DNA from: Promethearchaeota archaeon
Lineage (GTDB): Archaea > Asgardarchaeota > Lokiarchaeia > Sigyniarchaeales > SOKP01
Direction: 5' to 3'
DNA: 36,589 nt
Assembly (NCBI GenBank): GCA_016839585.1
Contig: JAEOTZ010000053.1
Location: 1-36,589, forward strand
Shown here: in pieces, positions 9,446 to 19,112 of the stretch
How positions within the stretch are numbered: position 1 is the first letter of the stretch
How the letters are laid out: each line of letters starts with the position of its first letter
Program-made: the position numbers and the translations under genes
Notes under the pieces: model-generated
Database searches by the model: none
The model's input: only the letters and a program-made list of their open reading frames with translations
What the model was told of the DNA's origin: nothing

Positions 9446-12400
9446 TCAAATCACATTAAATTCTATTAAAATGCTAAATATCGCAGGTATTCCCACGAGA
9501 AAAATAGCTGTTAGAATTATAATAAGGGTATAAAATCTCCATTTGACTGATATATTGTCTTTTCTTTCTTTATAAATAACATAAGGCAATAAAATTGCTC
9601 CCATAATCCAAATGGATATCCATAAAGTAAAAATATACCAATTAGGAGTAATGAACAGAAATAATATTGCGATAACTGTTATCCAAGAGGTAATTAGTTT
9701 TCTCATTCTATGTTTGAAAATCAAATCAACATCTTCTGTTTTTTTAGATGGTAAAAATAAAGAAAGTAGACCAAAAAGTCCAAGTATAACAAAAACAGAA
9801 TGATACCAATTTAAATAATTAAGTTGCAATGGAGATAAAAGAATACCACTTGAAACTGCAAGAAATAAACTAAATGAGACCCAGATGATTTTGTAATGTA
9901 ATTTTAAAAAATTGAAAATCTTGATTCCAATATCTTTGATAAATTTTTTTAATCGACTAAAAAAATGTATTAAAAGGTCTAAAAGTTTATTAAAAAAGGC
10001 CTTTAAGACTTCAAGCATAAAGATAAAGAGATAAACGGTAAGCATAATAGGTAAAAGAACAATACTTGATAATGTTTGAGAGGTCGCAAAATAAATTATC
10101 AAACTTATTAATAAAGAGATAAGACCTCCATAAGCAAAGGAAAAGTTATGAGATCTCTTATGAGGTTTAATTAATCCAATATTAAATATTGAAAAAGTTA
10201 AAAGGGAAATAGAGATATTTAGTGGGAGAGAAAGATTAAAGGAGAGATGTAACCAACTAAAAATATCAATAATTAGTATTATTAGAATTATGAAGGAAGT
10301 AGCAAATCTAAGTTTTTTTAAGAATTTCTCTTTAAAAATGTGAGATATTTTTTCGTCAATATAAGAAATTATTACTAAAACATAAAAGGAAATTAGGAAT
10401 AGAGTAATATTAAGAATTACATTGAATCCTAAGAAAAATAAAGGCCAAATTATAAAATCAAAATACAATACAGTAAGCAATCTTTTTCTAATTTTATCTT
10501 TTTTTGAGCTCAGTTTCGGCAAAAATTCAAACAATTTAATTAAATAGATAAGTTCTATGATAATTAGTAAAATTAAAGGTGGAATAGAAGAAATCAAAAT
10601 ATCAGATAAATAGGAAACATAGATCCATATTAAATAGAAATTTGAAAAGAATATAAATAAAAGCCAAGAAACTGCTTTAAGATATATTGAAAGTTTTCCT
10701 AAAAGCTTTAATTGATAAGCATCAAGAATCATTAATCCGTGGAGAAAAAGACTTGTTATAAGAATAAGTAAAGAAATTTCAACTCCGATTATAAGAAGAG
10801 ATTGAATTAGAATTGATAGGACAGAAACGTATAATAATATCCCTAAAGAATGAAGTGTTTTAAGTTTATGGCGTTTAAAGGTTTCTGCTTTATTAGGATA
10901 AAAGTGGGATAAAGAAAGAAAAAGTGAATGATTTGTATAAAATTGCATAATTAAAAAGATTAAGATTTCTATACTAATTAGAAGGGGATTAAATTTTACA
11001 TACTGGTTTAAGATTAGAAGAGTTGTTAAGGAGAGTATAAAATAACTAATCGTATGAACTAGTCTTCCATAACTTTCTCTTATTTTTTTTAGAAAATAGA
11101 TATCAAATGAAGTTAAAATAAATAAAGTTAATTGAGACATAAAAAGACTTTCAAAAAATCCTAAAAATTCAATTGCAAGTCCATAGACCATTAAACTTGT
11201 TTCAAGATATAGTAAAAAGATAATTAAAGAATTAGATTTCGTTAGAAAGTTAGGAAAATTTTCTTTTTTAACTAAACCATCAATTAACTTGACTGTAATA
11301 AATGATAAGCAGGTTTCAATTAGAATGATAGAATAAACCGTGAAAAGATTTAAAATATTGAATACTAAAAACAGAACAACCCAATTTGCGGCAAAAATTA
11401 TTTGAAAAAGAGTTATTAATAGAAGTTTTATACTGATTTTTATCTTTTCTTTAGCTTTTCTAATGAAATAACTAAAAATAAATAGAAATAATATTGAATT
11501 TTGAATGAATAATAGAAGAGAGGGTATTCCACGCACTTCTTCAAGAATTAATACTATTCCGTTAGATATTAGAGAAGAAATGTAAAATGAAACCCATATA
11601 AATGAATTATAGATTAGTATTAAGTGTATTATTGAAACTAAATTTTCGTTTTTAATATTAAAATATGAAATGAAGTAAGAATCAATTAAATTTACCAGAG
11701 AGAATGATAATATTAAAATAAATTCATCTAAATGGAAGAAATAAAGGAAAATGCAAGAGAAATTACCGAATATCACCCATGACCAAAACATTAACTTATT
11801 CCGAGTAGCAACGAATAAGTAATAAAAATATCGATTATCAAAAATAAATAATTCAGTAAATAAAACTCCACTTAAGATTATTAAGAATAAATAAATAGAA
11901 TTTGTTAAAGTAACATCTAATTTAAGCAATAATAACAAAAGATTAAAAGCTGTTGCCAATGGGACAATTAAATATATGATATAACTTATTTTATGAATAT
12001 AAATTAATAGATTTTTAACTTTTAATTCAAGTTCTGATTTTATAATATATTTTATACTAAATAATAGAAGAAAGGGTAGAATGATTAGAATATTAAGAAT
12101 CTGATAAATTAATAGTAAATCTCTGAATAATACTTTTTTATATATATTTACACTAATAACTGATATGAGTATTGAAAAATAAAGTGAATTTATTATAAAG
12201 CAGATTAGGTTTTGTAATTTAATTTGATTCTTATCTTTGAAAAAATACGATAAAGTATTCTCTCCTTTTATTTTAGCTTCTTCATAGTGAGAATTTGAAA
12301 TATTCATTACTAGTTGGTATATTATTAAATAATCAATCAAAAATATTAAAATTGCTAAAAAGAGGGAAGATTGAATAAAATCAATTATTAAGAATAATTC

Positions 12401-15400
12401 CTGAAAGAGAAATGTCAACGGTAAGGGAAACAAATACCATATATATAATCTATAATTGCCTAATGGATAGTAAACAAATAACAGAGAAATCATTACAAAA
12501 ATAGCAGCTATAAAAAATGGATTTTCTGGCAGAAATATGGCCAGAAAGGAAGAAACAGCGGAGGAAATACCAAATGATACCGCTGAAAAGGGAATTATTT
12601 TATGGATATGTATTTTCATTTTATAGTAATTAAAAACATAAAAAGAACCACCCCATACAGCAATTGCTAGAAATATAGCAAAAAATAATAGATTAGGGAA
12701 CAAATTAAATGAATTAAAAGTTAACCATGAAATACCAAATATTAGAATCCAAGAAGATATTATGTCTGTTAATCGTTTAATTGGTTTAATATATTTAGAA
12801 GAAAATAGACTAAATCCAACAAATATAAAAGTTATATTTAAAGCAAAAATTGGATCTAAGATTATATGATACAATATAAAATAAATTGTTAGAAAAACCC
12901 CAATTATCGCTGTTATGTAAGAACCAATGATAATGAGATTTTTTATTGATTTAAAAGCAGGAAAAAATGATAAAATTAAAACCAACATGGCAATGGCGAA
13001 AATATCAATTGAAATCACAATGTCTAAAGGGATTTCTAATGATAATAGAAAGAAAATTAAAAAATTTGCATTAATTGCTATAAGGATTAGCCATACGAAC
13101 GAGATTGTTTTCCAAAATTTCAATTTATAGAACAGGGGCGCTAATAAAACGGCTGCAAAAAGTGCAAATACCAAATATCTTAACAAGAAATTAGTCAGAA
13201 ATAGATTTTGACTAATCCAAAAAAGTAAAGCTAGGTTTATGCCCCAAATAATGAGTAAAATTTGATAGAAATATACCTTAATTTTAGTATATGCAATAGG
13301 TAAGAAAAATAGAAAAAATATCACAGTAGTGAGAAGAAATGATCCATTTATTTCATATCCAAAAAAATCTATTGCACTTGTAGCTATATCGACACCTTTA
13401 AGACTTCTATATAATAGATAAAAATTAGCAAAAGGTACAATAAACCAAGCATACCAACCTGTCCTCCAAATTGCCCAAGAAATTTTCCACTGATATAATC
13501 CAATAGATAAATAGAAAAGAAAAATTCCAACATCAATAGCTATAATTAATGGAAATGGATCTCCAAATGGTATGGAAAGAGACACACTAATAAAGAAATA
13601 TAAGAAAATAGGAAAGCTGATAACAATACATGGTAAAACTATAAAGAAAGAAATTCTTCTTAATGGTAATCGTGATTTATAAAATAATAAAACATAAGCT
13701 AATCCAGTAAGACTTAATGTTAATGTCGTTGTAAGAACGAAATTAACTTCTCCATGAATAGGATTATTAAAAAGCCATGAATACGATATAAAACTTAAAA
13801 TGTCAGTAATAAATAGAATTACAGTGAATCTTTTGATAAAGAATCGATATTCTTCAGAAACTAACTCAAATTTCTCGAAATAGGAAAAAGTAATAGGGGA
13901 TAATAGTGAAACAATTAGAATGAAAGTAATTATTAGATTAAAAACTGAAAACTGAACTAATGATAAAAAGTAGGTAAGAATAAAGGATATAAAAAAGCAG
14001 ATAGTAACTTTAGCAATTAGCCACGATACAAATTCAATATTCCTCTGTACGTTAGGAAATTCGAGTTTTATTAAAGCATTGCTAAACTTAAATGATATAA
14101 ATGCTATCAGGAAAAAGAAACCAAGATACCAAAACACATTAAAAAGATGCATTTCTGTTGGTAAATATTTTAAAACTTCGCTAAATTGAATTAAAGAAAA
14201 AATCACTAATGATGGAGAAAAAATTAGACCATAATATAAAATATCTTTTAGATATCTTAGAAAAGTTAATTCCTTTGAATAAAGTTGAAGTAATTTTAAA
14301 GTATAAATATTTATAATAAAGAAAGTTAAAATAGCACAATTTATTATTAAAAGCCTTATTGTAAGAAGAGATTGTGTTAAACCTAATAGTATAATCTCAA
14401 ATGATATAAAAAAGGAGAAGATTAACCAAACGAAGATCTGAAGAAATCTTAAAGTTTTAATGTAGGGTTCTTTTATTTTAAAATTTTCAGCTATTGATTC
14501 AAAGATCTTTAAAATGATAAATAAAATAAAGATGGTAATAATTAAGATTAGAATATAATCAACACTTAAACCCATTTGTTCTATTTGTAAACCCATTAGA
14601 GTTGGAACGCATAATATTATTCCGGATAATATTATACTGTTATAAATTAAGCTTTTTTTCCCTATAGATTCTGTTAGAACTCCTTTTCTATACGCATAAA
14701 TACTAGGTATGAAGAAGTATATGGATGCTAGCATTAATGGTAATAAAAATCTAAATAGTGTTTCATAGAAAATTATAAAGAAGTAAAAGAATACTGTTGT
14801 TCCAGTTAAAAGAAAAGCTATTAAAACTGCTAATATTGAAACAATTCTCCTAAGATTTCCTCTTATTTTGACGTTTATAATGATTAAAATTCCAAAGAGA
14901 GTATAAAGAGTAAAATTAATATCAGTAATAACTGTGATAGTATCGACAGTTAGTCCTAAACTGATTAATTCTAAATAAATGAATGTTGGAATACATAATA
15001 TCAATCCAGATAATAAGAAAGTGTTATAGGTTAAGATTTTCTTCCCAATAGACTCTTTCAAAATTCTTTTTCTATAAGAGTAAGTAGTAGGGATGAAGAA
15101 GTAAGAGGATGCTATTATTAAAGGGAATAAAAATCTAAATAGAGTCTCATAGAAAATTATAAAGAAGTAAAAAAATACTGTTGTTCCAGTTAAAAGAAAA
15201 GCAATTAAAACTGCAAGTATTGAAAGAATTCTTTTAAGATTTTCTCTTATTTTAATCCTGTAAATAAGAAGAATTCCAAATAGAATATAAAGAGTGAAAT
15301 TGATAACATTAAATACTGTGATAATATTAACTCGATATTCTAGATTAATTAATTCTAAATAAATGAATGTTGGAATGAGAGTTAGAAATACAGATAAAAT

Positions 15401-17683
15401 TATACCATTATATACTAATGCTGTTCTTGTTAATTTTGGCGCCTTATCTTTCTTCAATGAATACATTATTGGTAGATATAAATATGAGCACGTAATTATT
15501 ACGGGAAATGTAAATAGATAAAAGGTTCCTAAATTCAAAGATAGCAAACATAAATAGTAAAATAAATAAATTGAGCTGAGAAACAGGGTTATTATATTAA
15601 CATTAATAGATGTAGCTTTTGTAAATAGGATTTCAAATGCAGAAATGCCATTTATTAGAACACATGTAATAATTAAGGTAAGAAATGACGAAAGAATTAT
15701 ATTGTCGATTAAAAGTAGAAATTGAAAGGAAGCATAAAATATAGAGAAAATTAAAGCCAAAAGTAACAAAAATATTGGATAAGATAAAACACTCATAGCC
15801 TTTTTATAGGTTTCTTCTTTTACTTTTGCTATTTTTACCCCAAATTTCAAATTGAAATTAATAAGAATTAATAAAAGTAGGAAATTGAAAATCATCATAA
15901 TATAGTCTGGGAAGAATGTAATGAGTATAGATAGAAAAATAATTACTATTAATGACCAAAAAGAATAATAAATTGATGCTAAAAGCGTCTTTAAGTTAAT
16001 CATGCCAATTAAATAATTCAATGATACGAAAAGCATGAATATTAACGGAAATAAGATAGTAGAAATGGTTAAAAGCTTAATGAAAAGGTTAAAACTCACT
16101 GTGAAGTAGGTATTCAAATTGATGAGAATAAAGATAATTAATTCTATCAGAAATAAATTCATTAGTACGCATATTTTGAATGTATTTGAGTATTTTTCTT
16201 TGAAGAAAATTGCATATAATCTGTAAAATGAAAGTAATAAAACAACAAAGAAAACAATTAGAATTATAAAAATGTTAGAAACAAATGTTAGATAAGGATC
16301 TGTAGTAATATAAACATAGTTAAGAATGATCAAGAAAAAAGCAATTATTGCAAGAATATTTTGAGTTATTAGGATATTTCCTTTTTTAAAATAATCAACC
16401 CTTCTAAATAATTCTAACATGAAATAAAAGGAAATGGAAAAAACAATCAATTGAATATTGAAATTAATAAGATCTGAAATAGAAGGTAAGATTCCAAAAG
16501 AGATAGAAGCTAAACACGCAAGAGAATATAATAAAATAATAAAATTATTGTATTTTTTAAAGGAGTAATTTGATTTATGCTCATAATGAGTAAAAATAAA
16601 AAAAAATGGAAGAATAATTAGTGTAATGTAAGGTAACTCTATAAGAAAAGTGTATAATGTTATTAATAAGATTAAAATTCCTGTTAATATCGAACTTAAT
16701 TTTTGATATTTGACTTTTGTATCTTTATTTTCTTCTTTAGGATTTTTTGATGTTTCGGGGTTCGTGTATAACTCAAATAAAAATTCATAGTATAAGTAGA
16801 TATAAAGTACAGTTTTAAGAAAGAGTAAGACGAATAAAAAACTTAGAAACGCATCATCTATAAGAATACTAATTGAAAATTGACCTCTCTGAATAAAAAA
16901 TACCAATGATATGAAAGGCATTTGAATCAAAAGAACAAACATAAAGCTAGCTATAGATATAACAAATTTACGCTTAAATTTTGTTAGATTTTTTAAGAAT
17001 GGCTTGTTTTCGGCTATATTTTTTTTGATTTCATTCTGTTGATTACTTACAGACGCTAAAGTAATCAAATAAAAAATTACATTATTGATAAGCCCAAAAA
17101 GCCATGCAAAATCAGTTGAAGTTATAAAAGATAGATATAAAATTTGAATAAAGTAATTAATGACAATAACAATATTATAGGGTTGTTTTAACATCAATTT
17201 TAAACTAATAGCATGCTTAAACTCTCCTTCTCCTATATTGAAAAAATCGATAGGTTGAAAGTAGTAGTAATAATACACAATATTATATAAAAGAGAAAAA
17301 GAAATCAACGGAAGATAAATAAACGACCAATTTTCGGGCGTAATAAGAACGAAAATTGGGGTTACAACATAAGATAATATAGATATTAGATAAATGACGT
17401 GTACTCTGGCAATTGGGTTATTGGATTTATTATAAAAGAAAGGGTTATTTCGATATTTGTCAAAACTTTTATAAAAGAAGAGGAAAGCAAATGTAAAAAT
17501 TATGACAGAAATAGTAAACGCGATATATGAAGCCCAAGGAAACTGTACCAAGATCCAGAATCCAGCTAAAGAAATAGCGAAGGGGGCAATTATTAGGAAA
17601 AAGCAAAATCTAAATAATTTTGTAAGGAATTCAGTTACTTTCTTAATTTTTTCTTCAGAGTTGTTAGATTCTTTAGATTTCAT
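9446..17683 (-). CDS. Giant polytopic membrane protein, 2745 aa, unknown function
   Basis: Uninterrupted 8.2-kb ORF in AT-rich DNA. About 85 hydrophobic segments counted by eye, separated by alternately short and Lys/Arg-rich loops; no recognisable soluble domain. Confidence 0.9.
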   Translation of the reverse strand: MKSKESNNSEEKIKKVTEFLTKLFRFCFFLIIAPFAISLAGFWILVQFPWASYIAFTISVIIFTFAFLFFYKSFDKYRNNPFFYNKSNNPIARVHVIYLISILSYVVTPIFVLITPENWSFIYLPLISFSLLYNIVYYYYYFQPIDFFNIGEGEFKHAISLKLMLKQPYNIVIVINYFIQILYLSFITSTDFAWLFGLINNVIFYLITLASVSNQQNEIKKNIAENKPFLKNLTKFKRKFVISIASFMFVLLIQMPFISLVFFIQRGQFSISILIDDAFLSFLFVLLFLKTVLYIYLYYEFLFELYTNPETSKNPKEENKDTKVKYQKLSSILTGILILLITLYTFLIELPYITLIILPFFFIFTHYEHKSNYSFKKYNNFIILLYSLACLASISFGILPSISDLINFNIQLIVFSISFYFMLELFRRVDYFKKGNILITQNILAIIAFFLIILNYVYITTDPYLTFVSNIFIILIVFFVVLLLSFYRLYAIFFKEKYSNTFKICVLMNLFLIELIIFILINLNTYFTVSFNLFIKLLTISTILFPLIFMLFVSLNYLIGMINLKTLLASIYYSFWSLIVIIFLSILITFFPDYIMMIFNFLLLLILINFNLKFGVKIAKVKEETYKKAMSVLSYPIFLLLLALIFSIFYASFQFLLLIDNIILSSFLTLIITCVLINGISAFEILFTKATSINVNIITLFLSSIYLFYYLCLLSLNLGTFYLFTFPVIITCSYLYLPIMYSLKKDKAPKLTRTALVYNGIILSVFLTLIPTFIYLELINLEYRVNIITVFNVINFTLYILFGILLIYRIKIRENLKRILSILAVLIAFLLTGTTVFFYFFIIFYETLFRFLFPLIIASSYFFIPTTYSYRKRILKESIGKKILTYNTFLLSGLILCIPTFIYLELISLGLTVDTITVITDINFTLYTLFGILIIINVKIRGNLRRIVSILAVLIAFLLTGTTVFFYFFIIFYETLFRFLLPLMLASIYFFIPSIYAYRKGVLTESIGKKSLIYNSIILSGIILCVPTLMGLQIEQMGLSVDYILILIITIFILFIILKIFESIAENFKIKEPYIKTLRFLQIFVWLIFSFFISFEIILLGLTQSLLTIRLLIINCAILTFFIINIYTLKLLQLYSKELTFLRYLKDILYYGLIFSPSLVIFSLIQFSEVLKYLPTEMHLFNVFWYLGFFFLIAFISFKFSNALIKLEFPNVQRNIEFVSWLIAKVTICFFISFILTYFLSLVQFSVFNLIITFILIVSLLSPITFSYFEKFELVSEEYRFFIKRFTVILFITDILSFISYSWLFNNPIHGEVNFVLTTTLTLSLTGLAYVLLFYKSRLPLRRISFFIVLPCIVISFPIFLYFFISVSLSIPFGDPFPLIIAIDVGIFLFYLSIGLYQWKISWAIWRTGWYAWFIVPFANFYLLYRSLKGVDIATSAIDFFGYEINGSFLLTTVIFFLFFLPIAYTKIKVYFYQILLIIWGINLALLFWISQNLFLTNFLLRYLVFALFAAVLLAPLFYKLKFWKTISFVWLILIAINANFLIFFLLSLEIPLDIVISIDIFAIAMLVLILSFFPAFKSIKNLIIIGSYITAIIGVFLTIYFILYHIILDPIFALNITFIFVGFSLFSSKYIKPIKRLTDIISSWILIFGISWLTFNSFNLFPNLLFFAIFLAIAVWGGSFYVFNYYKMKIHIHKIIPFSAVSFGISSAVSSFLAIFLPENPFFIAAIFVMISLLFVYYPLGNYRLYIWYLFPLPLTFLFQELFLIIDFIQSSLFLAILIFLIDYLIIYQLVMNISNSHYEEAKIKGENTLSYFFKDKNQIKLQNLICFIINSLYFSILISVISVNIYKKVLFRDLLLIYQILNILIILPFLLLFSIKYIIKSELELKVKNLLIYIHKISYIIYLIVPLATAFNLLLLLLKLDVTLTNSIYLFLIILSGVLFTELFIFDNRYFYYLFVATRNKLMFWSWVIFGNFSCIFLYFFHLDEFILILSFSLVNLIDSYFISYFNIKNENLVSIIHLILIYNSFIWVSFYISSLISNGIVLILEEVRGIPSLLLFIQNSILFLFIFSYFIRKAKEKIKISIKLLLITLFQIIFAANWVVLFLVFNILNLFTVYSIILIETCLSFITVKLIDGLVKKENFPNFLTKSNSLIIFLLYLETSLMVYGLAIEFLGFFESLFMSQLTLFILTSFDIYFLKKIRESYGRLVHTISYFILSLTTLLILNQYVKFNPLLISIEILIFLIMQFYTNHSLFLSLSHFYPNKAETFKRHKLKTLHSLGILLYVSVLSILIQSLLIIGVEISLLILITSLFLHGLMILDAYQLKLLGKLSIYLKAVSWLLFIFFSNFYLIWIYVSYLSDILISSIPPLILLIIIELIYLIKLFEFLPKLSSKKDKIRKRLLTVLYFDFIIWPLFFLGFNVILNITLFLISFYVLVIISYIDEKISHIFKEKFLKKLRFATSFIILIILIIDIFSWLHLSFNLSLPLNISISLLTFSIFNIGLIKPHKRSHNFSFAYGGLISLLISLIIYFATSQTLSSIVLLPIMLTVYLFIFMLEVLKAFFNKLLDLLIHFFSRLKKFIKDIGIKIFNFLKLHYKIIWVSFSLFLAVSSGILLSPLQLNYLNWYHSVFVILGLFGLLSLFLPSKKTEDVDLIFKHRMRKLITSWITVIAILFLFITPNWYIFTLWISIWIMGAILLPYVIYKERKDNISVKWRFYTLIIILTAIFLVGIPAIFSILIEFNVI
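14600..15490 (-). repeat. Intragenic tandem repeat, period 384 bp (128 aa), ~2.3 copies
   Basis: TCCAGTTAAAAGAAAAGC at 14801 and 15185; GTTGGAA at 14601/14985/15369. The peptide SILAVLIAFLLTGTTVFFYFFIIFYETLFRFL occurs twice identically. Boundaries approximate. Confidence 0.9.
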
Positions 17684-17685
17684 AT

Positions 17686-17714
17686 CTCAAGATAATATTT
17701 TTAATTATCTTGAG
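17686..17714. promoter_or_regulatory. Perfect 11-bp inverted repeat abutting the giant gene's start codon
   Basis: CTCAAGATAAT (17686-17696), 7-nt spacer, ATTATCTTGAG (17704-17714); 2 nt from the ATG at 17683. Confidence 0.6.
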
Positions 17715-17789
17715 TATAAAGTAAATATTAATTAAAAAATGTACCATAAATTTTTCTTCTTTTAAAAAAATATTACGAAAAAATAAAAT

Positions 17790-19112
17790 TTATCTAAATT
17801 TTGGTAGATATTTCTTTTGCAAATCGCTCATCTCGTTAAAAATGTCTTCTGCCATTTCAAAACTCCCAACATTCGGATCAATAGCTAAGCAAGCTAATGC
17901 AAATTCTTTAGATCTTTTTAATGCAGCTTCTACACATAAATCTTGAATAGAAGCTTCAATACGAAGCAACGCAGCGATATTTTTTGGTAGTTCGCCTATT
18001 TTTACACCATGAACACCTTGTTTATTAACTTTAGCTGAAATTTCAAGGACTAAATCTTCTGGTAGATTATTTATCAATCCGTCATTTGGGAGATTTACAG
18101 CACTTTCATAGGAATTCTTATCTGTTATTATTGCTTCAATAATAGGTATAGCTCTTTCTCCAGAGGGTTCTTTAAAAAGAGGTCCAATCTTTGGTCGTTT
18201 TCCTTTTTTCAATCGTTTATAATAATGAGCGATAAGTCCATATATACTTTGATTAAATTGATCTGTATGATTAATCCAATCAATCATATCTTGAGTTTTG
18301 GTAAATTCTTCACCAAATTGAAGATATTCCCCTAAATGGTTATCTCCAACATAGGGAAAATAACCGAATCTATTATAAATCTCAAAGGTTAAAGTTGAAA
18401 ATTCAAATCTGTTTTCATTTTTCTTAAAATAATTCATGGCTTTAACATTAAAATCAAGCATTAAATCTTTTCCAGCAGCTAAATCTTCTAATCCTAATAA
18501 AAAGGCAAAGTGGTTAAGCCCTGCGACTGTCATTTTTAATTCTTCCAGCTTTTTATTAAACATTATCGGTAAATGATGATTTAGAAATCCAATTTGATGA
18601 CATAAACCGATAAATTTTAAATTTTTTGTTGCTCTTTTAATTGCTAAACATACTCTAGACATAGGATTTGAAAAGTTAATAAAAAAAGCATTTGGGCATA
18701 GTTTTTCTATATCTTTTATAATTTCAATAATTGGTGGGATAATCCTCCAAGCATGAAAGTTGCCACCCGGACCTCCACATTCTCCTAAAATCTGAGTAGA
18801 ACCATGCTTTCTGGGGATCTCATAATCCTGCCACCATAATGAAAATCTATCACCGACTTCAATCGAATTAATTATGAAATCAGCATCCTCAAAAGCTTCA
18901 GCTCTATTAGTAGTCCATTGGATATTAAATTTATTTCCTAATCTTTCATTTTCGAAAGTTAATAGCTCATAAACAATTTTCAATTTTTCTTTATTTATAT
19001 CATGAAGTACAATCGTAGAACCTACCAGAACAGTACTTAAATATAAATCACTAAACGTTGATGGACCAAATGAAGTTGATCCTGCTCCAACAAGTACAAT
19101 CTTTTTTTCCAT
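17790..19112 (-). CDS. Glycoside hydrolase family 4 (NAD+/Mn2+-dependent alpha-galactosidase/alpha-glucosidase)
   Basis: KIVLVGAGSTSF Rossmann motif, DYEIPRKHG..Q..GECGGPGG, FINFSNP, IGLCH, AGLNHF, GDNHLGEY. Confidence 0.9.
   Translation of the reverse strand: MEKKIVLVGAGSTSFGPSTFSDLYLSTVLVGSTIVLHDINKEKLKIVYELLTFENERLGNKFNIQWTTNRAEAFEDADFIINSIEVGDRFSLWWQDYEIPRKHGSTQILGECGGPGGNFHAWRIIPPIIEIIKDIEKLCPNAFFINFSNPMSRVCLAIKRATKNLKFIGLCHQIGFLNHHLPIMFNKKLEELKMTVAGLNHFAFLLGLEDLAAGKDLMLDFNVKAMNYFKKNENRFEFSTLTFEIYNRFGYFPYVGDNHLGEYLQFGEEFTKTQDMIDWINHTDQFNQSIYGLIAHYYKRLKKGKRPKIGPLFKEPSGERAIPIIEAIITDKNSYESAVNLPNDGLINNLPEDLVLEISAKVNKQGVHGVKIGELPKNIAALLRIEASIQDLCVEAALKRSKEFALACLAIDPNVGSFEMAEDIFNEMSDLQKKYLPKFR

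Follow-up and report, generated by a model that had tools for sequence, protein, structure and literature searches.

A predicted 85-helix membrane protein of an apparently undescribed, order-restricted family in Lokiarchaeia

The window analyzed here is a stretch of 36,589 nucleotides from a Promethearchaeota archaeon of the Lokiarchaeial order Sigyniarchaeales (GenBank assembly GCA_016839585.1, contig JAEOTZ010000053.1, positions 1 to 36,589), and its subject is one very long gene on the complementary strand, referred to as the giant gene, and the giant protein that it encodes. This is very probably a genuine, single-copy and selectively maintained gene for an integral membrane protein of about 85 helices, belonging to an undescribed family that is restricted to one order. 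No characterized chain known to us crosses the membrane nearly as often, with 38 helices in Piezo and 35 in Arc3A.

The gene is a single unbroken open reading frame that begins with ATG and runs for 2,745 codons, the length also given in an earlier reading of the same DNA from its letters (the original prediction). The N-terminus of the protein is conserved among relatives, and the annotated start codon is therefore right. The product has a mass of 322 kDa, an isoelectric point of 9.4 and a grand average of hydropathicity of 1.11; Leu (17.5 %), Ile (16.3 %) and Phe (12.3 %) make up 46 % of the chain, and 69 % of all residues sit within membrane segments. The gene is present once in the source genome (3.45 Mb, 99 % complete). 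Against two close relatives, which are 88–89 % identical to the giant protein, the ratio of nonsynonymous to synonymous substitution rates (dN/dS) is 0.225 and 0.269 (0.22–0.29) at a dS of about 0.2, and it lies between 0.12 and 0.55 in every 300-column window, the lowest-powered of which holds 52 codons. Purifying selection acts on the giant gene. It also forms a local trough in GC content (0.24 versus 0.31–0.35), for which a foreign origin was considered and ruled out: GC at third codon positions is 0.202 in the giant gene and 0.207 in 20 neighboring genes, and the codon choice for each abundant amino acid is the same. The low GC content is thus due to the amino-acid composition and not to foreign DNA.

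Because a composition so rich in Leu, Ile and Phe scores as transmembrane even when scrambled, shuffle controls were applied. A strict hydropathy rule (greedy Kyte-Doolittle, 19-residue windows, mean of at least 1.6) finds 79 helices, compared to 56.6 ± 3.1 in shuffled sequences (n = 300). A topology model (dynamic programming with helix lengths of 17–30, a term for Lys/Arg on the inside, and the Hessa insertion scale) finds 85, compared to 71.6 ± 2.9 and at most 77 in shuffles, with a score of 891 versus 638 ± 18, and places the N-terminus inside and the C-terminus outside. AlphaFold2, run with family alignments on two fragments that cover 35 % of the chain, agrees with this model helix by helix: in residues 1290–1800 (predicted local distance difference test, pLDDT, 86.7; predicted template modeling score, pTM, 0.64) 17 of 17 helices match, as well as a partial first helix, and in residues 690–1135, a fragment of the N-terminal arm (pLDDT 87.4, pTM 0.65), 14 of 14 match and every turn has 3–8 residues. 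An N-in topology with an odd number of helices is also obtained for 95 of the 97 full-length relatives modeled. The estimate of about 85 helices, originally made by eye, therefore stands, and neither the hydropathy rule nor the topology model returns a far smaller number.

The giant protein is predicted to consist of 42 tight helical hairpins and one further helix. Charge-free runs of at least 17 residues number 65, compared to 38 ± 3.5 in shuffles, and a Lys/Arg-rich loop lies beside a Lys/Arg-free one in 52 adjacent pairs, compared to 12.6 ± 3.7. According to the topology model, 178 Lys and Arg residues fall in inside loops, nine in outside loops and 13 in helices, a bias owed partly to the model's own Lys/Arg term; shuffles reach no more than 124 versus 22. 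Inside loops (43) have a median length of 14 residues, 41 at most, and with their 64 Asp and Glu residues carry a net charge near +114. In outside loops, also 43 in number, the median is three residues and the maximum 24, and the net charge is near −26. The longest stretch of the chain that is free of helices spans 56 residues, and there is therefore no soluble domain. Both the alternation of basic with very short loops and the lack of a large soluble domain had been noticed in the original prediction, and both are borne out.

No known family accounts for this architecture. Pfam and NCBIfam contain no family that matches the giant protein or diverse relatives (four relatives in the case of Pfam) at E ≤ 1, and a sequence profile search of the PDB returned nothing at E ≤ 10. 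An exhaustive HMMER search of 1.84 billion representatives, using a profile of the conserved central region (the hub, described below), gave 49 matches, all of them family members or fragments. Structure searches with the hub and arm models (Foldseek, VIA-align and ESM-Atlas) gave no significant match and did not list Piezo; over both models, the top rows were three-helix pieces (Z 8.8–9.9) or soluble helical-repeat proteins with TM-scores of 0.15–0.2. With the hub model, Foldseek found nothing in the PDB at E ≤ 0.001, the best rows being TPR/HEAT solenoids at TM-scores of 0.1–0.2; VIA wide gave a best Z of 8.8 over 88 residues, to a three-helix MrpF-like piece; and the ESM-Atlas shape search did not exceed a TM-score of 0.39. 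For the arm model, Foldseek ranked designed helical repeats, toroids and TPR proteins highest (E values of 0.1–1), the best VIA wide score was Z 9.9 over 89 residues, and a second VIA comparison gave Z 9.1 to EccD5 with 135 residues aligned. EccD is weakly matched by the hub as well; Z values of 8–9 are below the noise level for helical proteins, and the match is kept as no more than a lead. The nearest clusters in the ESM-Atlas feature search, DUF2339 (0.84) and DUF2157 (0.83), are below the useful level of 0.9. No publication was found that names the family, its locus tags or its accessions. Judging from these searches, the family of giant hairpin arrays appears to be undescribed and to match no described family or fold.

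A search of 5.8 billion clustered proteins returned 108 homologues of 1,500–3,750 aa, nearly all at E = 0 and with 30–47 % identity, all named hypothetical and all of equal helix density; the entry MFX1322689.1 (2,745 aa) is near-identical to the window protein. More than 100 relatives are full-length, with 81–117 helices among those aligned and open frames of up to 4,920 aa, and the window protein counts among the shorter of them. Of 400 genomes of the phylum, 116 are matched by the hub profile. All matches fall within four families, each of the order to which the window belongs (100 of 134, one of one, 12 of 14 and two of four genomes), and no match was found in 246 genomes of 29 other families. 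Three of the matching genomes are closed, with hub profile E values of 1e-58 to 1e-70, and their proteins were identified by exact look-up: QEE15075.1 (DSAG12_00898, 3,940 aa) in Promethearchaeum syntrophicum MK-D1; UYP46621.1 (NEF87_002906, 3,146 aa) in Ca. Lokiarchaeum ossiferum, whose genome contains a larger paralogue as well (open frame of 4,920 aa); and MCF2139232.1 (4,296 aa) in Ca. Harpocratesius repetitus. All three are annotated as hypothetical proteins. Like the window protein, they are built entirely of helices and carry both the Trp-rich motif in the hub and the C-terminal W-R-F motif; their greater length comes from longer arms. The window protein has every feature that marks membership: full-length homology, the fixed 18-helix hub, the odd N-in topology and the K-W-R-F motif. 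Some homologues from metagenome-assembled genomes (MAGs) carry the submitter labels Hod- or Thorarchaeota, which are not reconciled with a distribution confined to the order.

The gene is missing, by both hub and C-terminal profiles, from three MAGs of the same family that are 96–99 % complete, and thus appears to be dispensable in some lineages, with the usual caveat for MAGs. A weak match of the C-terminal profile in another genome (G163) proved to be a spurious hit to a beta-helix surface protein. In a single-contig genome of the same genus (G188:C1:2325886-2326962), hub positions 147–508 alone are found, in an open frame of 1,344 aa, and this gene may be truncated or disrupted.

Conservation is centered on the hub. 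In an alignment of 85 full-length relatives, the sequence is conserved from about residue 300 to the C-terminus and best conserved at residues 1290–1800. This core measures 504–522 aa in all 85 relatives, with a mean column identity of 52 %, and the hub around it contains 18 helices in every one of them. Its 17 invariant columns include W1406, P1417, N1420, P1462, W1480, W1524, W1531, S1572, P1575 and Y1589. The first three of these belong to a Trp-rich membrane crossing that is broken in the AlphaFold2 model (Table 1) and in which W1399, W1403, G1409 and W1413 are also kept in at least 89 % of relatives. There is no conserved acidic residue in the hub; where polar residues are conserved, they are Asn, Ser, Thr and Gly, as is typical for the packing of helices. 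The C-terminal K-W-R-F motif is 88–98 % conserved. Between the hub and this motif, at residues 2558–2598, the helical hydrophobic moment reaches its maximum for the whole chain (0.65 versus a mean of 0.19 ± 0.11; Eisenberg scale). The Trp-rich patch (residues 1397–1413), the SVKWRFY motif and an amphipathic basic stretch near the C-terminus had all been singled out from the sequence of the window protein; the first two are now seen to be among the best conserved positions of the family, and the third corresponds to the peak in hydrophobic moment. Beyond the hub, charges in the middle of the membrane are conserved in the arms at E514, K1225, E2161 and D2473. Facing the cytoplasm, the acidic residues E368, D2321, D2443, E2558, D2651 and E2706 are 91–99 % conserved, and together with H2315 they form a set conserved at 89–99 %.

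The two arms that flank the hub are variable in length, and this variation is modular. The N arm contains a tandem array of 128-residue, four-helix units, copies 2 and 3 of which are 72 % identical, with a dS of 0.55 and a dN/dS of 0.30. At this dS the copies are too old to be an echo of the assembly, and both duplicated copies are constrained. Length differences among relatives at a dS of 0.2 are exact in-frame blocks, one size being 128 aa (four helices) and the other 250 aa (eight helices), the extra 250-residue block lying in the C arm of one close relative, so that the window protein and these relatives have 85, 89 and 97 helices. In the family at large, the region that corresponds to residues 690–1135 falls into length classes of about 190, 318, 446 and 574 aa, or 190 + n x 128, with a further class near 370 aa. 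In this region of repeats, Pro, Tyr, Trp, Leu and Phe account for the near-invariant positions. Besides the 128-residue array, no repeat over the whole chain exceeded the reversed-profile control in fragment BLAST or a profile self-dotplot, and four further repeat pairs (offsets 118, 148, 245 and 249) remained below threshold. No single repeat unit can therefore be detected as the building block of the whole chain. The solenoid of repeat units that was originally proposed is thus upheld in part: the four-helix unit exists at residues 718–1103, but there is no repeat elsewhere above the control, and the fold matches are weak. A block of about 229 residues that most relatives have directly before the hub is missing after residue 1287 (13823-13828) in the lineage of the window protein, which includes P0002 and P0003.

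One clade encodes the N-terminal module as a separate gene, co-directional with and directly upstream of the large gene: a 316-aa open reading frame at L012:3049-3999, 46 % identical to residues 1–303 (E 5e-74), and another at L005:7061-8014. The junction between the two genes is a 1-nt gap in one genome and a 14-nt overlap in another, and the remaining 2,500–2,700 aa stay in one gene. The boundary near residue 300 is a natural point of splitting or fusion. Homologues divided into ordinary small genes would have counted against the original prediction; such division is seen to a small extent, for the first 300 residues or so in this clade, and the rest of the protein stays a single gene. The most distant member found is a complete gene of 1,497 aa (MFX1296889.1; P0143, L002:219-4712) with about 53 helices, in which the hub begins at about residue 58 and there is hardly any N arm. 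It retains the Trp-rich motif and the C-terminal W-R-F motif, and may define the minimal functional architecture.

Table 1. Coordinates in the window of the giant gene, its upstream region and the features of its product (aa, amino acids; TM, transmembrane helices).
Feature	Residues	Positions	Strand	Remarks
Complete coding sequence	2,745 aa	9446..17683	(-)	~85 TM, N-in/C-out
Own upstream region		17684..17789	(-)	Read from the sequence; putative promoter and terminator
N arm	1-1285	13829..17683	(-)	38 TM; family range 34-50 TM, almost always even
N-terminal 8-helix module	1-303	16775..17683	(-)	Fused here; in one clade an adjacent gene of its own
Tandem 128-aa (4-helix) units, three copies	718-1103	14375..15532	(-)	TRF 14601-15376, period 384, 2.0 copies
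Conserved hub	1286-1800	12284..13828	(-)	18 TM; alignment, AlphaFold2
Trp-rich broken membrane crossing	1397-1424	13412..13495	(-)	Short broken helices, pLDDT 56-75 (AlphaFold2)
Longest extracellular loop	1425-1448 (24 aa)	13340..13411	(-)	Small beta-hairpin (AlphaFold2 model)
C arm	1801-2745	9449..12283	(-)	29 TM; family range 13-37 TM, always odd, mostly 29
Cytoplasmic amphipathic basic helix, ~40 aa	2558-2598	9890..10012	(-)	E2558 kept in 96 %
Cytoplasmic C-terminal motif S-x-K-W-R-F-Y	2712-2718	9530..9550	(-)	Directly before last helix

The surroundings of the gene are less constant. In the window, an aminotransferase gene and a GH4 gene lie upstream, and a convergent gene for a 531-aa surface protein lies downstream, followed by a Liv-type adenosine triphosphate (ATP)-binding cassette (ABC) transporter. 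Oligo-T tracts follow the GH4 stop codon upstream of the giant gene, and a TTTATA box is located at 17720-17715, 32 nt ahead of the ATG. Downstream of this box and 2 nt from the ATG is a perfect 11-bp inverted repeat, CTCAAGATAAT / ATTATCTTGAG (17714-17704 / 17696-17686), with a 7-nt spacer. Both arms recur unchanged in the closest relative (L010) and have decayed in L011; the repeat could be an operator or a 5' hairpin. The giant gene may have a promoter separate from that of its neighbors.

Close relatives keep part of the gene order of the window. The gene for the GH4 glycosidase (17790-19112) stands between the aminotransferase gene and the giant gene here and likewise in the more distant relatives L003 and L005, and there is no GH4 at the corresponding position in the two closest relatives (L010 and L011), a pattern that suggests recent loss or insertion. 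In other genomes the neighbors include UxaE/UxaC, an SPFH protein and an amidohydrolase, histidine-biosynthesis and GNAT genes, a PlsC-type acyltransferase, and an alpha-amylase. An SPFH/Band-7 (flotillin-like) gene, L006:4207-5442, precedes the giant homologue on the same strand in MK-D1, and was seen in MK-D1 only. Across the neighborhoods of relatives in the order, no conserved operon partner was found. The neighborhood had originally been called lipid-rich, but homologues from other families of the order do not share this context, which therefore carries no weight.

It may be that the giant protein is a passive, membrane-embedded structural array, neither an enzyme nor a solute transporter, and this is the reading tentatively favored here, as a leading possibility rather than a probable one. 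The work would be done by the arms of hairpins through their large footprint in the membrane plane, strongly cationic on the inner side and almost bare on the outer one. Around the fixed 18-helix hub, the array could organize or mechanically condition the lipid bilayer. In the family, the arms gain or lose length through tandem duplication or loss of whole modules with even numbers of helices. A structural array is favored because the near-invariant residues in the repeats of the N arm are Pro, Tyr, Trp, Leu and Phe and the hub has no conserved acidic residue, because there is neither a soluble domain nor a conserved partner, and because length varies between close strains without loss of constraint. 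Several points weigh on the other side. The conservation of the hub goes far beyond what a spacer needs, and its broken Trp/Gly/Pro/Asn crossing would be suitable for a pore, groove or binding site as well. Together with this crossing, the conserved charges in the middle of the membrane in the arms (E514, K1225, E2161 and D2473) and the conserved cytoplasmic acidic residues, from E368 to E2706, which might form a site, are the main observations left unexplained by a scaffold. Since three genomes that are 96–99 % complete are without the gene, it is not a universal structural requirement. Finally, an extended "ribbon" geometry is suggested solely by the kind of weak structure matches that the models gave. 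A more specific version of the structural array is a rather doubtful proposal: the family would be a new class in which one polypeptide makes an in-plane ribbon of 85 to about 140 helices with a fixed hub, duplication of hairpin modules would tune the arms like an accordion, and the ribbon would shape, stiffen or sense the curvature of the Lokiarchaeial cell membrane, for example at protrusions, rather than serve as a channel, pump or enzyme. A role in membrane curvature had been put forward in the original prediction too, alongside that of a lipid conduit, as conjectures. As for assembly, tight hairpins with translocated turns of 2–5 residues would suit an insertase of the Oxa1/YidC type; if this is right, it would also account for modules having even numbers of helices.

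Other models may be relevant. Arc3A of P. aeruginosa (PA5114; DUF2339, PF10101) has 35 transmembrane helices, a helix number that varies among relatives and no enzyme-like residues, and it prevents the accumulation of lysophospholipids, a mechanism to which its authors linked helix number and density (PMC8926400). By analogy, the giant protein might be a lipid-handling "sponge", a dense array that sequesters or buffers lipids such as lyso-lipids or isoprenoids and so protects membrane integrity. The giant family repeats the design features of Arc3A at a larger scale, its absence from some lineages fits an accessory protective function, and DUF2339 and DUF2157 are the nearest ESM-Atlas feature clusters, though at 0.83–0.84 they are under the 0.9 level. 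However, there is no sequence relationship: PF10101 does not match the giant protein or its relatives at E ≤ 1, nor anything in the genome at E ≤ 0.01, in a search in which control genomes were matched. Nor does an Arc3B-type partner adjoin the giant gene, whose neighbors are those named above. To our knowledge, archaeal ether lipids are also not substrates of A-type phospholipases. On balance a sponge of this type is rather unlikely.

A channel, a mechanosensor or a lipid scramblase centered on the hub, which alone or as an oligomer would form a gated pathway with the arms as large membrane-coupled levers, would follow a Piezo-like principle without homology, and has a similarly modest chance of being correct. 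The fixed hub and two extensible arms recall a central module with blades, and the broken crossing of the hub, rich in Trp, Gly, Pro and Asn, combines invariant residues with lower model confidence. The four-helix repeat unit in the N arm, the long cytoplasmic amphipathic helix ahead of the last helices and the few conserved intramembrane charges would fit as well. Yet the membrane core of the hub has no conserved acidic or basic residue, there is no cap or pore-like soluble element (outside loops do not exceed 24 aa), and no channel or transporter fold was matched in the structure searches. Arms that differ in length between close strains would also be unusual for a tuned lever.

An enzyme embedded in the membrane, acting for example on a lipid or a lipid-linked glycan at a cytoplasmic active site in the C-terminal third or the hub, is improbable. 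It would make use of the cytoplasm-facing residues E368, H2315, D2321, D2443, E2558, D2651 and E2706, which are conserved in a basic background, and genes of sugar or lipid metabolism (GH4, UxaC/UxaE and a PlsC-type acyltransferase) are nearby in some genomes. These neighbors are not conserved across the order, however, Pfam and NCBIfam yield no enzyme family at E ≤ 1, and 60 or more variable accessory helices would be unusual for an enzyme. Hardly credible at all is the idea of a non-functional frame (a product of chance in AT-rich DNA, of faulty assembly or of gene decay): shuffled sequence that is AT-rich and rich in Leu, Ile and Phe does still score as transmembrane (57–72 helices by the two rules), and the gene does hold tandem repeats, but this reading is already contradicted by an 8.2-kb frame free of stops, full-length homologues in 116 genomes, closed ones included, the dN/dS of 0.22–0.29, the synonymous divergence of the repeat copies (dS 0.55), confident AlphaFold2 models (pLDDT 86.7 and 87.4) and a loop charge alternation 10 standard deviations over shuffles.

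Whatever its function, the protein bears on wider questions. The insertion and folding of a 322-kDa chain with outer turns of 2–5 residues would challenge present thinking on how membrane proteins are made. The family occurs solely in the Asgard order of the cultured MK-D1 and L. ossiferum, cells with an unusual membrane architecture. As a candidate for a membrane function specific to this lineage, itself closely related to eukaryotes, it is open to testing. Its anatomy yields defined constructs: the 511-aa hub, the 128-aa unit, the split 8-helix N-module and the natural 1,497-aa short form.

Two known systems invite comparison. Piezo1 and Piezo2 are mechanosensitive channels with 38 transmembrane helices per chain, whose blades are made of nine four-helix units. 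Features in common with Piezo are a very high helix count, a four-helix repeat unit within one arm, amphipathic helices lying in the membrane plane, and a conserved center with peripheral arms. Unlike Piezo, the giant protein has more than twice as many helices, a repeat detectable over three units only and arms of variable length, and it lacks a large extracellular cap or pore module, its longest outside loop being 24 aa. Pfam models of Piezo do not match the giant protein or four relatives at E ≤ 1. As for a Piezo-like blade of stacked four-helix units, the 128-aa unit occurs three times, and no Piezo match was listed for the arm fragment, which does not exclude such an arrangement. The original prediction had claimed no homology to Piezo, and with neither a sequence match nor a cap or pore module, none is claimed here. 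Arc3A is similar to the giant protein in its dense helix array, lack of enzyme-like residues, variable helix number and accessory, non-essential character. It differs in being bacterial, in having 35 transmembrane helices and a partner, Arc3B, and in defending against a phospholipase toxin, a role that is unlikely to carry over to ether-lipid membranes. At the level of sequence, Piezo and DUF2339/Arc3A are analogies rather than relatives; in design, Arc3A is the closest characterized counterpart of the giant protein.

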